Origin: Octopus vulgaris
Lineage: Eukaryota
Reading direction: 5' to 3'
Length of the DNA stretch: 64,000 nt
Assembly (NCBI GenBank): GCA_951406725.2
Contig: OX597817.1
Span: forward strand, 29,388,001 to 29,452,000
The notes under the pieces were generated by a model. That model ran no database searches, was not told the DNA's origin, and saw nothing but the letters and a program-made list of their open reading frames with translations. The number at the start of each line of letters is the position of its first letter. Positions within the stretch are counted from its first letter, which is position 1. This document shows, in pieces, positions 8,688 through 55,750 of the stretch. A program made the position numbers and the translations under genes.

Positions 8688-10035
8688 TATATACTTGTAC
8701 CCTCTTGGACCACATTTTTCTTTCAGGTATTGGTCTGCATGTAGGTATCAATATTGTTAATCTCACAACCCTGGACAACCTCCAGAAGTCATGAGTGCAA
8801 CCCACTTCTTTGCCTGGTTAACCTACAAGCGAAACTCTGACTTGCCCTTGATACAGAAATGTGAACCTTTCAGTACTGTCCCCTTCAACACAATTAGGTT
8901 ACAAGACTCATCAACTTCTGTCATAATCTCTTGGAGCAAATATATCTTATAATTATAATCCTCTACAGTACCAAGTATTCTGAATCCTAATCAATTAAAC
9001 TTTGTAATTGAATAGTATGAAATTTCCTTTGCATCAGTAATGTTCTTTTAGAAAGTAATGTTAGAAGGTGTGTTGACTTATAGTTTCAGGTTGGGTTTTG
9101 CAGGAGTTTAAATACAGTATGTGTAGAAATTAATTATGAATAGATATTTGATAATACCAAGTGACATGACAGATAATTGATGAAATGGATATCATAAGAC
9201 TATAGAGCAAGACAAGCAGATCTGATTACAGTGTGTTGCAGCTGCTGATATTTTTACCTCAGTTAGTTGTCTATTTCATTGATAAAATAAAAGTAAAAGG
9301 CTGCAAAACAACTTTCCGCTATTTTGTCCAGTTATTAGTAGTGTAATTTATTGCATGATAACAACTATTAGGTTTCTCTTTTTCTTCTCCCTCTCTTCAT
9401 CAACCACAACATCTCAACAGCAGCAACACCAACAACATATACAGAACATCAATTTTTTTTTTCAGTACTGGTTATAAGTTACATCGGTCATTTACTTTGT
9501 AATTCTTCTGCAAAACCTAATATTTAAACTTGTAATTAACTTGACATAATTTTTGCCTCAATGAATCACAACGTACTTTTCTTTTATATCTCCGCCCATT
9601 TTTTATTGCTAGCTATCACTCTCTCTCTCCTCAATTATTTCTTCTCTATCACTCATTATTGACATCTATCTATCACAACCCATAACATCCACTTTCGTAT
9701 CATCACTCATCTTTTCTGCTATCCATTATTCTCTCTCACATTACTCCATCACATGATTTATTGTTTACAACTATTTCTTCTTCCTATATTCTTTCACTTT
9801 CACTCTCTTACTCTTATAACTCTGGTTCTCTTCAATTATCCTCACTTCTGTCATACTTTCACTCCAAATGTCTTCCATCCCTCTCTTTTACTTCCAAGGG
9901 ATGAGACAACCTTTGGGTGCTCTTACTGGTGAACAAATAAATGGAAGCAATATAGGGTAGAAAGTACCTTTTAGTCATACATACAATAAGAGCTTTAGTC
10001 ATATATACAATAAGATCTTTAGTGTGGTGCCTCTA

Positions 10036-41432: not shown

Positions 41433-41681
41433 CAAGGAATCTAATGCGCTTGGCTTAGATTTTCCTTTGGGGCTGGCCAGGTCGGAGCAATCTAAGAAGT
41501 CAAGATTAATCAGCCGAAATTGCGAGGATGATCCGGTTCTTGACTGAAGATTGAATGTCCCGTCCGTGTTTTTTGTATCGTCTTCTAAATGTTTTGCGTT
41601 CTTGTCCCAGTTTGTGTTTTTTTTACATATACACACACATATATATATATATGTATGTATACACACGCACGCATATATACA

Positions 41682-41980
41682 CAGGGTGCGGTGGGTAAAC
41701 TGTCACCATTTTATATGTTTAATTTCACGCGTGCGCATTGTTTGTTTTTGATTTTGTCGACTACACAGTATAGTAGGGTCAGTTGGGTATCGTCTGTGAG
41801 AAAAACAGCACCACGACGCAATTCATTCTGCCAGAAATTTGGAAACGACATGCTGTACTGCTTGGTACTTCGCGCTGAAGCTCCAATACGAATATTTCAG
41901 AGTGTTTGGCTGTCAATTTGTGGACAGCGCAATCTGAGGACATGTACTGAGAGTGACAAAAATCAAATGAGGAGGGTTGC
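41682..41980 (+). mobile_element. Tc1/mariner (maT-like) left end
   Basis: CAGGGTGCGGTGGGTAAACTGTC resembles the terminal repeat CAGGGTGCGATGAATAAACTGTC at 62623; followed by a transposase-start-like peptide (PEIWKRHAVLLG). Confidence 0.6.
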
Positions 41981-41984
41981 AAGT

Positions 41985-42278
41985 CGCTAGGGGCAATCGT
42001 TTGGTTGCCATGGTGAGGAATATGGGAAAAATTGAGTTTTATGGGATAGACAGGTTGCGCTGTCTATGGTGGCTTTTCATGTTGCTGCAGGGGCTACAGG
42101 CGGTTATCTTTAATTGCAGGTGTAAAAATTTGGGGGATTTTGGAAAGGGAGGTAAAGAAAAGGGCAATAAAAAGAACCAGGCAAAGAAGACGAACAAAGA
42201 AGAAAGGGAAAAGGAGACAACACGCACAAAACAACACCACCACCAAAACCCGAGCGAAGCACGGGTCAAAATAGCTAG
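41985..42278 (+). mobile_element. Helitron 3' end
   Basis: Hairpin CCCGAGCGAAGCACGGG followed by CTAG|T at 42275-42278; 5' boundary not defined. Confidence 0.6.
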
Positions 42279-42709
42279 TCTTAATATATATATTTGAGTG
42301 ATGCTTCTCAGTCCGTTACGTTTTTATGTTCGTTAACTCCTCCTAGACCGTTGGTACAAGGACAACGAAACTTAAACCAGCACCTCCCTTAATCCCAGGG
42401 AATGTCCTAAGAGGGTTTATGTTTTTAAGGACCACCTAATTGGGGCACCACTGACTCCCCTGCTTTTACTGCATTTTAAACTAAATACATAGCAATGCAT
42501 AGCAACCGGAGCAATGGCAATGAATTACATACTATGAACTCCCAGGGAGCATCGTAAGGAGGTTCAATTTCTGAAGCGTCACTTAAATGGGGCCACCACT
42601 GTTCTCCCCCCACCCGTTTTACTGCATTTACCTCACTCCTACACTTGTTGATTAAACTATGATCAGCATCAGTGCTTAGCACATTTACAGAAATAAGTTT
42701 CATTACACG

Positions 42710-42847
42710 AGGCTAGAGGGTCGTGAAGCAGCCCGATAGCGGGGCCAAAGGCCTTAAAGGTGAACCGAGATTAGGCAATATTTTCCAGAGACATTTAGAA
42801 TACAGGTGCTAGACAGAATGCCATCCGTAGGGCGGCTTCAAGGCTAG
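42710..42847. other. Direct-repeat-flanked, inverted-repeat-bounded cassette carrying an exact 36-bp copy of 45447-45482
   Basis: AGGCTAG at 42710-42716 and 42841-42847; TGAAGCAGCCC (42724-42734) pairs with GGGCGGCTTCA (42830-42840); 42769-42804 is identical to 45447-45482. Confidence 0.7.
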
Positions 42848-42965
42848 TTGAATATATTTTCTCTTTGGTAATTCAAGATATTTTTGTATATTTTTGATAA
42901 ATAAATCTGTGAAAATGAGATGTCAGTGGTATTTTCATTTTTAGACGACAATATTCACTGACCCC

Positions 42966-43026
<61 letters not shown>

Positions 43027-43062
43027 TATATACACATACATACATACACACACACACATATA

Positions 43063-43976
43063 CGAGTGGTTACCCAAAAGAAACCGGAATTTTGCAATCT
43101 TATTTCATTTACTTAGTTTTACATGTTTACACTTTTATCGCCTTCAGAATATTCTCCATTTGAAGCAGTGCATTTTCCACAGTTCGAAGCAGTGCTGGAA
43201 CTTCTGTGAAGTATTGCTGTTTAAAGTCTCCGTCGTTTTTTTCTTCACCTCTTTCACATTTACCAATTCCGTAGCACCTGCTTTCATCATCAAGTGATGA
43301 CCTTCGTAAAAAAGTCTGGGACGACTTCCTGGTATTCTTTCAGTTCACGACATGCATTCAGTTCTGACTACTTTTGAGCAAGCGAGGCTCAAATTTCCGT
43401 GAGGAAGTGAGGCACAAATTTCCGTGACCAAGCGAGACACAAATTTTGCTGCAACTGTTTTCATTCGCAACTCCTCGCTCAAATTTTGATGGCAGGCGCT
43501 CCAAGATACGAGTCCAGTTGTTTGGTAACGGTCCTCCAAGACCAATTCATGAAATTTCATGATGTTTTCTTTTGAACGGGAGGTCGACGGCCGCCCTGAA
43601 CGGGGTTGGTTTTCAAGTGACAAGTAACCGTTCCTAAAGCATGAAAACCACTCGTAAATTTGTGTTTTGCTCATGGCAGCGTCCTTGTAAGCTGTTTGAA
43701 GCATGACAACTGTTTTGGCCGCCTTTTTTCCCCAGCAGGAAACAGAATTTCACGGAAGCACGCTGTTCTTTCGTTCCACCCGTCGCAAAAGTCGACAAAG
43801 TAGGGAGAAGCACTGCAAAACAAAGACACACCACGTGGTAGTACGACCTCACCTAACGCCGCTGGTCGGCAGACTGAAGCCTGAGGTTTGCATCAAGTAG
43901 ATTCCAGCAGCGGAAGCCTGAACTATAATGGGCTTGTGTCAGAGAACGTTTCTGGTTACTATTGGCTAGCGCCTCG
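43063..43976 (-). mobile_element. mariner (irritans-like) deleted fossil
   Basis: TA-flanked CGAG...CTCG TIRs; peptides EQRASVKFCFLLGK, MLQTAYKDAAMSKTQIYEWF, PRSGRPSTS, AAKFVSRL. Confidence 0.9.
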
Positions 43977-44013
43977 TATACACACACACACAGACACACA
44001 CACACAAGCATAT

Positions 44014-44275
44014 ATCATCATCATCATTTAATGTCCGTTTTCCATGCTAGCATGGGTTGGACGGTTCAACAGGGGTCTGGGAAGCCAGGAGGCTGCACCA
44101 GGCTCCAGTCTGATCTGACAGTGTTTCTACAGCTGGATTCCCTTCCTAACGCAAACTACTCCATGAGTGTAGTGGGTGCTTTTTACGTGCCACCGGCACA
44201 GGAGCCAGAAGAGGCTGGCAACGGCCACGATTAGTTGGTGCTTTTTACGTGCCACCGGCACATGGAAACCAGCCA
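44014..44275 (-). mobile_element. RTE-tail retroposon
   Basis: Reverse complement of the 25454-25820 family, beginning with (CAT)n. Confidence 0.85.
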
Positions 44276-47099
44276 TAAATGTATATATATATATGTATAT
44301 ATATATATATACACGTATATATAGATATATATACATTTATTTTTACATTATATATATATTATACACACATATATACATATATATTATTTGTAATGGTTTG
44401 ATTCAGCTTCATATATATATGCGTGAATGTATTTTGGAAAGAAAAGATTACTGTTATTAATGCTACAGCAACACATTGCTCTTCAACTTATCAGATTCTG
44501 CCCAGTATGGAAGCTGGACATTAAATGATATTGATGATAATAATGATCACACACACACATTTTATCGACAGGTAGCAGGATAGCTATTCAAATATTCATG
44601 TACAACCACGTAGTTATACACATCTAAAGATAGATACTTATGAATTTACTTTATATCAATGTACAATGCGGCAAGAAAGTGACTAGAATTGGAATTGGTT
44701 CTTAGTCTCAGATGCATAAATATACTGTATGACATGTGCATACATACACACTGCATGACTATTCAGGTGATGTTGGTAGTAAAACTGTTCCATACTTCAA
44801 AAATCAAGGATTAGTTGATTGGTAAAATATCTAAGTGTGTTACGAAGCAAACACATTTCATTATCTTGATACCAGAAATCGGTAACGTTCCCAAAATAAC
44901 CACCTACTCATTCTTGTGAGACAATGTCTTCTTGTAAACAGTTTATATTTTGCTTTATGTCTTCTCTGACAGAGACACCAAAATCACAATAAATATAGAA
45001 TTTATAACTTTAAATATAAAAAAATAAAATAAAGGTGCAACATTCAAGTAATTTCTGTTGCTCTTTGGGGCATGAAACAAAAATTATTCATTGCCTTAGA
45101 GATCAACATCTCTAAACACATGAATTTGGGACATTGTTCCAATGTCCTATCTATGACATTTCATAGATTTAAATATACAGAATTTCATCTATAGCATATT
45201 TAGTCTCCATACCTAAGGAGACAAAATACATATGAATGAAATTTTGTACACCTATTTTTATTTATAACCAGGAACAGAAAATGCTTTAAAAAAATTACTT
45301 AAAGGATATTAGCTATTAGTTCATCTGGGCTAATGATATATTCATCCAATTCTTAATGTGTTGATTATTAATTATTGCTGATTAGCTATTATTAAAAGAA
45401 CCCATTTATTTCAGAATTTGTTCAGAGTTATTTGTAAATGTTATTGGATTAGGCAATATTTTCCAGAGACATTTAGAATACAAATTCTTTGAGAAAATAA
45501 AAATCTCCATATTCTATTCTGCTATCCTTTATGCTTAAATGAAATTACAGCTATATTTCCAACTGACTTTTGACACAGCTATTCACATTTTCCTTCAGAT
45601 AAAGTAGAAACTGTTGGCATGACCACATACAGTCTATGATTGAGAGAAATCATCAAAGACTTGTTTCTCAAAAGGATTCAAATCTGTTGGATTCCAGTTA
45701 ATAGATTTAACTATAACAACATTTTTGAATGGAACTCATACAAAATTTAGTGAAATATTTCTCCAATAAAAACATTTCTAAATGTATGCACTAAAAAACA
45801 AACCCAAAAGAACAACAATATTTTTCTCTGGCTTATAATATGGATATATTTGCATTAGGAGGGCACATTTTTTTCTTTGTAATACTGAGTTTTAACTTGA
45901 ATAAAAGATTGAAATGCATTTTAAAATTCACCATCATAAAGCCAAATTGCCTAATATTCAGCTTTTCATCACATAATAAATTAACAGTAGATATCAAAAA
46001 AAAAAAAAGAAAATATATATATATATACACATGTAAAATATAGAAACAAACTGACTCCAAAATTAGAAGTATAAATGTGACTATAAAGCTTCATTTCTAC
46101 TTTAGATTTGTGAGATTTATGGAGCTTTTGTTTTCTGGTGCCATGTTGTAAATGAAAATTCATACTTTTGAGGTTAGTGATGAGGAATACTGCTATTTCT
46201 AGTTTGAAGATTTTTGAGTCATAATGCACAGAAGATCTATATGGAATTTGTAAATAAGGACCTATATATAATAAAAGACAGTAATTTCAACAATTTCAAG
46301 ACTTTTAAAACACATACAAAGGGAAATTTCACAAGACAGTCAGTCACCCACTGACACTCATTGACACTACATCGAAGAGGCCAGGGAACAGAAGAAAGAA
46401 GAAGAAAGAAGACATGCACCCAACACCAGAGCTGAATACACCTCCGAAAGGAGGGGGCCCGCCACGTCAAAACGGTAGACGAGTAGGGGCCGAAACCGGA
46501 CATGGTTCCTCCTGATGATGTCTTGAGCTAACTGGATCCTAAAAAGGAGCTGTTGTAGTAGCAGACCACGAAACACGGTTGAAATTCCTCAGAAAGAAGA
46601 TATACATTCAAAGATGTTAACAATGCAGTGGGTTTTTTTTCATGACATGACACAATTTCTGCAACAGGAACTACAAGGATAGGATCAACTCCAGTAGATT
46701 ATTATTTTTACTACTGACCTGAGAAGGAATGAAGTGTATTGACTAAGGAGTCAAAATACTTTTTGGTGTTTAGTTATGTTTAATATGTCTCTCTTGATTT
46801 TATGACAGGGACACAACATTCCTGTTTGTTATGAGAAGTGACTGAAGGAGTTGGATCCAAGAAGAGCAGCTGGCAGTAAAACACTAGAAAAATGTATCAA
46901 AAGTGGATGTAAAACAATGATGATAAGAATTATTCATCAACTACATATTTTTATATTCAGAGTACAAAGGCTGCTAGTGTCTATTTCACAGTTTATATTT
47001 CTGAGGTTGATGAAGTATGTACCATTTATTTACAGGAATTGATATAATTAAAAACATGCTCTCTCAAATTGGTAGCCTTGTGCCTATATTAGAAATTCT

Positions 47100-53664: not shown

Positions 53665-55750
53665 ACCCACTAAACAACAATGGAGCACAATATTATTGAA
53701 TTATGACTACAAAATGGAATATTTACCCTAAAAAACCTAAGGTATGCGGATGGCATGTCCAGACTGATACTGAAACACCGCGAGCCATTCAAACATATGG
53801 TAATCGCAGCTTTAAGAGTAGAAGGAGAAATAAAAAATGCAATGAGAAATGTGGTACGCAAAATAACAGTAACCCTAGAAGACATAAAGCGAAATGTAGT
53901 AAAAGACAGATTCATAAGAGAAGTGAAAAGAACATTGTGGTCAGAAAATGTAAATAGGAATAATATTGGTGCGAAACAAAACCAAGACGTGAACCTATAC
54001 TCAATGTGTGATGGTGTACAGAGAGTAGTGATACTTGAAACACTACGAAAGAAAATGTCGAGGGAATTTCATTTTGGACATCCTGATATTTCGAGGATGA
54101 AAGCTTTAGGATCTTTTCGGTTTGAACGGCAGTTTTTAACATAATTTCTAGGTAACTAAAAAATTTTAAACTGGTAGAATGTGTTTATAAAACATCTTTT
54201 TCTCTTGGCTTTATTGAGAACATTCTATAGTTTGTAAGATATTTGTTGTTTTTTTTTCTTCTATTTCTGCAATTTCAACCAATCACTGACGTCTATGTCC
54301 CTCGTTTAAGAAACAGATTGGGTTTATTCACATTTGTGAAGAAAAAAAAATACCCTTCCCCTAATCCTAACTAACTCTAAACCTAAAACAGATTGAAATG
54401 CAATAGATCGATACTAGGGTCATAATTATGGTTGTCAATTTCATATGACACCGCTAGAATAAACTGCCGTTCAAACCGAAAAGATCCAAGCTTTAGTGTG
54501 CAGCTGTGAGTACTGGCCAAAACTAGATACAGAAATCGAAAATTTAGTGATAGGCTGTTGAGGATGTGCTCTAGTAGCAAAATTACCGATGATAAAAAGT
54601 GAACCTTGGCCAAAAGTAAATGTTCAGTAGTCGAGACTACACATCGATTTCGCTGGTCCTTTAAACGGTTCAACTAGTTAGTGGTAGCTGATAGTTTCTC
54701 CAAATGGCCAGAAATTTGTAAGTGCAAAAAACCAACCTCTTCAACCGTGACAAATTTTTTATGTGAGCTGTTTGTGAGATTTGGCGTCCCAGACGCCATG
54801 GTGTCTGATAATGGGATGCAATTTGTGTCTCGAATTCTGCAAAACGTTTGCTGTAGAACATGTAACTACGGCGTCATACCGTACTGGATCTAGTGGACGA
54901 GCCGAACGCTTTGTCGATATATTCAAGGGAACCCCTAAGGAAGTCAAATAAGGAAGTCATGGATGAGTTAGATCTGCAACAATTCTTAAGTGTATATCGT
55001 GTGACAGCAAATTCAAATATATCTGTATGTATGTCACCAGAAGAGCTTATGTTTTCAAGGAAAATAAAATCAGTCTTCGACAAATTACTCGTTGGTAAGA
55101 AAAGAAAAATTGCAAAGGAAAATGCAGCAACATCTTTCAGAATTGGTGAAAATGTATTTGTGAGGGCATCTAAGAATGGAAAACAGAGTTGGGTAGATGG
55201 CGTGATTACCAAACACATAAAATAAATGCTATACTTGGTAGAAAGTAGAAAAGGCGTATACAAGAGACACATGAACCAGCTGGAAAAAGATTCGTTGACA
55301 GCGAACCCAAGAGAATGGAAGAATCAATGGAATGCTTATAAGATACTTTTCAAGTACAATGCTACCACAGGTGATTAAACCCAGACGCACAAACGTAAGA
55401 AAAATGTATGGAGTTCCTGGGAGTAGATGCCAAATGGAAAATATATTAAATGTGTAACTAAGAAAAAGAACCAAAAAAGGGAGGTCGGGTGATATAAAAA
55501 GTATTGCTATTAAAAGAAATAAAATGACATTCTCTAAGAAAAAAAGAAAAATCTGAAGGGGAGATGTTGTGGGGATAATAGAAATAATAGTACACCCCTC
55601 TCACGTGACAAGTGGTTTGTGACAGTCATTATAAATAAGGTGATGTCAGCCAGTATATATAGAGAAAGTACGAAGTAGACGCTCATAGATAGTCGTGGTC
55701 TTCCTTGTCTAACTATACTGCTGATATAGTTTTTGCAAGGTAGTGAACAT
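53665..55750 (+). mobile_element. Gypsy/Ty3 LTR retrotransposon remnant (RNase H end, integrase, PPT, 3' LTR)
   Basis: LLNYDYKMEYL...ADGMSRL, HFGHPDISRMKAL, YWPKLD..C..C, LHIDFAGP, DSFSKWPE, FGVPDAMVSDNGMQF; PPT GAAGGGGAGA then TGT at about 55565. Multiple stops and frameshifts; LTR end approximate. Confidence 0.9.
54109..54487. mobile_element. GGATC-TIR MITE nested in the Gypsy integrase HHCC region
   Basis: Perfect 8-bp TSD AAGCTTTA at 54101-54108 and 54488-54495. Confidence 0.93.

Follow-up and report, generated by a model that had tools for sequence, protein, structure and literature searches.

How does a short stretch of single-copy DNA come to stand, letter for letter, inside a hairpin-bearing tract less than 3 kb away from its twin? 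The question is raised by positions 42710-42847 of the window (the whole stretch of 64,000 nt from Octopus vulgaris analysed here), where an AT-rich 36-mer lies between the arms of an inverted repeat and a pair of AGGCTAG heptamers. From the letters alone, the original prediction had taken this tract for a self-contained 124-bp unit, either a guide or spacer held in an RNA scaffold or a miniature Pack-type element, and had named templated filler DNA from break repair as the mundane alternative. It is this mundane alternative that the analysis supports: the feature is real but ordinary, another instance of an already described templated-insertion process.

The 36-nt Duplication and Its Donor

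The exact copy in the same orientation, between unrelated flanks, is confirmed. The 36-mers at 42769-42804 and 45447-45482 are identical on the same strand, extension by a single base fails on both sides, the surrounding sequences of the two copies are unrelated, and the window holds two matches to the 36-mer vs none in 100 shuffles. Searching the 2.8-Gb genome (227 contigs) with the 138-bp unit and with the 351 bp around the second copy returned only these two places for the 36-mer, in keeping with the requirement that it should not belong to a common repeat; because very common words are skipped in such genome searches, their counts are lower bounds. The region 45300-45650 around the second copy likewise matched only itself and the insert. 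The two copies can be described as follows:

42769..42804, forward strand: templated insert of 36 nt with the same sequence as 45447-45482; 15 of 15 aligned sister copies of the host repeat lack it; net gain 33 nt
45447..45482, forward strand: likely donor; single-copy AT-rich DNA, 2,678 bp downstream of the insert, with no protein-family support for coding

The donor copy had been placed in a putative exon, a claim which is unsupported rather than excluded: the 50-aa frame over the donor found no match in Pfam, and its best Atlas score was 0.78 (low recognition), so that neither search supports a coding role. In the same Pfam scan, covering 25 frames, the sole match over the cut-off was a broken mariner-type transposase fragment (HTH_48, E 1e-6) at 43348-43749 on the reverse strand, between insert and donor.

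An assembly or polishing artefact, with the 36-mer mis-joined into the repeat, has to be considered in a region which is repeat-dense and adjoins a long AT run. Public contigs were compared from 4 of 14 listed runs. One contig of run X1 covers 42769-42941 without differences and bridges the right junction, with 36 nt to its left and 137 nt to its right, and two contigs of run X2, from another study, cover 42671-42798 and 42775-42902, again without differences; each includes 30 nt of the insert, one nucleotide below the 31-nt bridging rule. X1 or X2 may itself be the source of the assembly. Joints skipping the insert were absent among 15 of 106 joints listed, and the listed pieces of runs X4 and X5 miss the site. 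With contigs from two studies in agreement, the duplication is not an assembly error, and we regard an artefact as very improbable.

The Host Element

The halves of the presumed scaffold match seven other loci in the genome, and at these loci the two halves are adjacent. Homology to these sister copies does not stop at the left edge of the 124-bp unit; it reaches about 430 bp further left, to 42279. With 42280-42768 as query, 440 first-look candidates were obtained, of which 40 were scored, the best sisters having 80-86% identity. The homology starts at a 5' TC terminus at 42279-42280 (TC preceded by A is plain by eye in about 10 of 29 sisters, the rest being blurred by AT runs or decay) and ends at a 3' terminus at 42844-42848, CTAG followed by T, the T after the end being found in 16 of 16 aligned copies. 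The 3' end made of hairpin and CTAG before T defines one subfamily of the copies sharing the 5' TC end. Apart from AT runs, the 5' flanks of the sisters are unrelated, as are their 3' flanks, so that by eye there is neither a target-site duplication nor terminal inverted repeats; flanks of occupied sites, rather than empty sites, were compared. The element, its subterminal hairpin and its neighbour are listed below:

42279..42847, forward strand: full-length copy of a non-autonomous Helitron-type family (about 535 bp without the insert); TC start, CTAG end followed by T; sisters share these ends
42820..42836, forward strand: subterminal hairpin of the Helitron-type end; 17-nt palindrome, 11 nt from the end, decayed in the window copy and almost perfect in several sisters (judged by eye, covariation uncounted)
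41968..42278, forward strand: neighbouring 3' part, truncated on its 5' side, from another and younger family of Helitron type (3142 first-look candidates, about 92% identity), its CTAG end abutting the TC start of the element at 42279

TC start, 3' hairpin, CTAG end before T and absence of a duplication make up the Helitron feature set given in PMC6544945, and the family matches it. Since homology runs about 430 bp to the left, the TC and CTAG-T ends are shared and the flanks are not duplicated, the 124-bp unit is, judged by sequence, the tail of an old, non-autonomous Helitron-type copy of about 535 bp. The claim that local sequence had been captured thus holds in its plain sense; as an insertion with boundaries of its own it fails, those boundaries being part of a longer repeat. 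We found no name for this family in the literature listings, to which the comparison was confined.

Several further observations concern the family and its surroundings. In about a dozen of the 29 sisters the first ~420 bp are common and the 3' part carries a different CTAG end, and two longer members (L008 1430-2130 and L026 800-1530) have two hairpin-plus-CTAG ends in series; alternative and serial ends are as expected of Helitrons. At L038, as in the window, a CTAG stands directly before the TC start (~1490-1505), and this abutment may reflect, at both places, insertion at the A-T of the older element's 5' boundary. Helitron Rep genes are abundant in the genome: 150 of 1172 candidates were scored as matches to Helitron_like_N, many of them in open frames of more than 1000 aa, and none was matched to this family. 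For many of these matches the frame runs 1000-1700 aa without a stop, many are identically scored, and several cluster on C29 (examples are C29 27.64-27.83 Mb and C7 48-59 Mb); from their sequence, such stop-free matches are likely to be young autonomous Helitrons. A separate small element with terminal inverted repeats of 27-31 nt about 350-390 bp apart occurs at 34010-34410, 54109-54487 and 15990 of the window, and has several copies in the window and its flanks.

Occupancy of the Spacer Across the Family

A guide-loading system would combine a constant scaffold with variable inserts, and the sisters make this prediction accessible. Between the two halves they carry a spacer of 9 nt in 15 of 15 aligned copies (out of 29 fetched, the ones with this end that were retained for aligning) vs 42 nt in the window, a net gain of 33 nt. 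With exact anchors applied genome-wide, the empty-spacing pattern gave 20 matches, 19 of which are family copies by eye. With the spacing widened by +6 to +36 nt, these anchors returned two matches, the window and one without similarity to the family, and a second expanded pattern (about +5 to +35 nt) gave five, the window and four without similarity to the family. Scanning 34 distinct loci for both anchors revealed L038 as the sole other large expansion, 16 of the 34 having no right-anchor match at the threshold used. L038 was set aside as a second filled copy: its insertion of ~230 bp (~1965-2195) is bounded by TTAA, lies close by on the 5' side of a spacer that is itself intact, and is likely another small transposon.

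Within the limits of these anchor patterns, the prediction of a constant scaffold with a variable spacer fails in the sequences compared. The halves are indeed not unique, recurring genome-wide as the tail of the family, and no variable inserts stand between them in the copies found. A wider proposal would make the tail stem-loop a hotspot for breaks or template switches, at which host machinery, or RepHel acting in trans, would repeatedly load short local sequences into the spacer, the window copy being a caught intermediate of Helitron capture; we hold this to be distinctly improbable.

Inverted Repeat, Heptamers and RNA Fold

All the features described earlier are present at their stated places: the inverted repeat of 11 bp (42724-42734 / 42830-42840), both AGGCTAG heptamers (42710-42716 and 42841-42847) and the small hairpins. 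What they were taken to mean does not survive comparison with the sisters, as seen for the left member of each pair:

42724..42734, forward strand: left arm of the 11-bp stem, pairing with 42830-42840; an internal inverted repeat found family-wide in the sister alignment, not specific to this copy
42710..42716, forward strand: left AGGCTAG; part of the element's interior, differing by one private change from the version commonest in the family, the heptamer being carried by 0 of the 14 sisters having the position

Other contigs read G at 42713, inside the left heptamer, and the right heptamer is the family's own terminus. A reading of the two as direct repeats marking an insertion was hence dropped, the left one being an internal variant and the right one the element end. 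A Pack-type element having terminal inverted repeats and a target-site duplication was likewise rejected, for the stem is internal to a longer element and the left heptamer is element sequence, without any duplication around the unit. Nor is the scaffold a structured one by the measures applied: the RNA fold of the unit, on both strands and with and without the heptamers, was no better than that of shuffles (z -0.71, -0.39, -0.31 and -1.50), and a search of Rfam over 41500-46500 at E up to 5 gave 26 weak matches, none of which lies over 42710-42847.

These results bear on a programmable cassette, in which a structured RNA scaffold would stay constant while its 36-nt spacer varied, the spacer targeting a nearby locus or being derived from one. 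In its favour, the exact match and the surrounding inverted repeat are genuine, and the occupancy survey had its limits, the patterns reaching net gains up to 36 nt and exact anchors seeing only part of an 80-85% diverged family. Nevertheless, one filled copy faces 19 empty ones by pattern and 15 of 15 by alignment, the unit folds no better than shuffled sequence and matches no Rfam family, its boundaries are not those of an independent unit, and no target-site duplication surrounds it; the probability that we would assign to such a cassette is close to nil. No RNA run was among those listed as containing the sequence, an outcome that speaks neither for nor against a discrete transcript.

Timing of the Insertion

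Whether the 36 nt arrived together with the element or later can be approached through divergence. Against a leave-one-out family majority, the window copy differs at 59 of 517 positions (11.4%), and it differs by 15-21% from each sister; the insert is identical to its donor. Under base-specific rates of the family, the chance of an unchanged 36-mer is 0.056 if one lineage is considered and 0.003 if both are, weakening to 0.056 if the donor is under selection, and an empirical check found 286 of 7,888 36-nt windows unchanged on one lineage. As the copy is 11% diverged whereas the insert equals the donor, the insert likely came long after the transposition of the element, an argument from sequence which assumes that no young sister subfamily was missed among the 440 candidates, 40 of them scored. 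Since no empty allele was seen at the locus among the listed joints, the order of events rests on this divergence argument.

The main competitor is filler capture in the course of transposition, by which the Helitron, as it inserted, would have picked up 36 nt as a copy of DNA close to its landing site. A filler-DNA model of Helitron capture is described in PMC6544945, the genome abounds in Rep genes with long open frames, and the insert is near the 3' hairpin. Set against this are the identity of insert and donor in a host copy diverged by 11% (chance 0.003-0.06), the absence of the 36-mer from any amplified copy in the genome search, and the occurrence of comparable duplications without such a scaffold (described below). 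Filler capture is accordingly judged unlikely, though the least so of the alternatives.

Junctions and Proposed Mechanism

At the right junction the insert closes with CA, the dinucleotide that also terminates the spacer in 12 of 15 sisters; a microhomology of 2 nt is weak evidence by itself. At the left junction there is no microhomology; about 7 family bases are replaced by 6 others there:

42763..42768, forward strand: six left-junction bases without a match in the donor or in the 7 nt usual for the family; either untemplated or diverged

A template for them was sought with 8-mers across the six bases, which have no second copy within 5 kb of the junction on either strand. Neither poly(A) nor a duplication accompanies the insert. 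The marks of templated gap filling and of class 2 insertions are consequently found at the junctions (microhomology, a micro-deletion or untemplated bases, without target-site duplication or poly(A)), the CA being the weak part, and also at the donor, a unique one in cis, single and 2,678 bp away.

We consider it highly probable that the duplication is a product of templated gap filling, in which breakage of the resident element's tail in the germ line, or a fork stalled there, was repaired with 34-36 nt copied from 2,678 bp downstream and rejoined via CA. The break would have occurred in the germ line, inside the tail, long after the element had inserted, and about 7 family bases would have been lost or changed. 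The broken end would then have switched template to the nearby donor, copied 34-36 nt and been rejoined on the right through the two bases common to donor and family, the 6 nt on the left being untemplated or diverged. Polymerase theta-type end joining, synthesis-dependent annealing and fork template switching are candidate routes between which the sequence does not distinguish. The product likely has no function.

Background Rate of Short Local Duplications

An exact-match survey of 264 kb (the window and its 200-kb flanks) gave 21 isolated pairs, 20 of which are parts of repeats, leaving only the window case; that no second case was found in the 200 kb flanking the window speaks against the repair reading. 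A mismatch-tolerant survey of 664 kb gave 48 candidates, reduced to 9 rows by the uniqueness filter and to 7 distinct pairs, namely the window case, five comparable ones and a 25-nt low-complexity pair which was set aside as likely chance. The five comparable isolated pairs, in 600 kb of other DNA, are 31-139 nt long and 290-2,055 bp apart. The longest (L128 7266-7404 / 9321-9459, on C19) is an exact 139-nt inverted copy at 2,055 bp, with only two full-length places genome-wide, its middle also matching a simple repeat elsewhere. One of the L128 copies stands between two microsatellites, and the other runs into a SINE-like repeat. The remaining four (L092 9059-9103, L062 1177-1221, L100 8869-8910 and L100 2743-2773) are isolated duplications too, 31-45 nt in length, whose copies differ by 2-4 mismatches and are separated by 290-1,176 bp; that of L092, on C1, is a 45-nt pair 376 bp apart and unique genome-wide over its full length. 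For three of the five comparable pairs the check extended only to the surrounding ~0.8 Mb, and these three may belong to low-copy repeats. On these small numbers, short local duplications recur in the genome at roughly one per 100-300 kb, and with comparable cases found elsewhere the scaffold is not needed for such events.

Comparison With Described Systems

The closest likeness is with single-copy captures in animal DNA transposons of the Pack-TIR type, for which PMC8277862 reports that 56.9% of donors lie within 15 kb, mostly at less than 5 kb, with a median microhomology of 2 bp and capture after transposition, and that an orthologous element without the capture was present in 91 of 97 primate cases. 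As there, a unique host fragment stands in one copy of a DNA transposon, with a donor in cis at less than 5 kb, a 2-nt microhomology, a small loss of element sequence and a capture that probably followed transposition. Unlike those captures, the present one is in a Helitron-type host, without terminal inverted repeats or target-site duplication, and its 36 nt fall below the 100-bp cut-off of that survey.

Class 2 templated sequence insertions, as set out in PMC5110952, also resemble the present case, being genome-templated patches without target-site duplication or poly(A), and with a junction micro-deletion, microhomology and few untemplated bases. Their donors are described as distant, an RNA origin is proposed and they occur as polymorphisms; the present donor lies 2.7 kb from its insert. 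The host itself agrees with a non-autonomous canonical Helitron (TC...CTRR) as presented in PMC6544945, with its TC start, 3' hairpin, CTAG before T, lack of target-site duplication and of coding capacity, and internal foreign sequence; it departs from the filler capture described there in that later transposition did not multiply the captured piece and no autonomous partner was matched. Finally, an AT-rich insert forming a direct repeat, with short microhomology, recalls the templated insertions (TINS) of polymerase theta. According to PMC7165422, TINS tracts are rarely longer than 10 bp, their templates lie within ~30 bp, and distal templates make up less than 0.1% of repair; classical polymerase theta insertions being shorter and more local, this narrow class fits poorly.

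Significance

The duplication belongs among the ordinary scars of a genome rather than to a guide system, and as such matters little; its importance would rise only if loading of this one spacer proved recurrent across the family. A Helitron tail, with its hairpins and CTAG end, can mimic a scaffold-and-guide cassette once it has received a repair insert. The locus offers a tidy single example of a short local patch in a dead transposon copy, and a possible marker for dating or population work.
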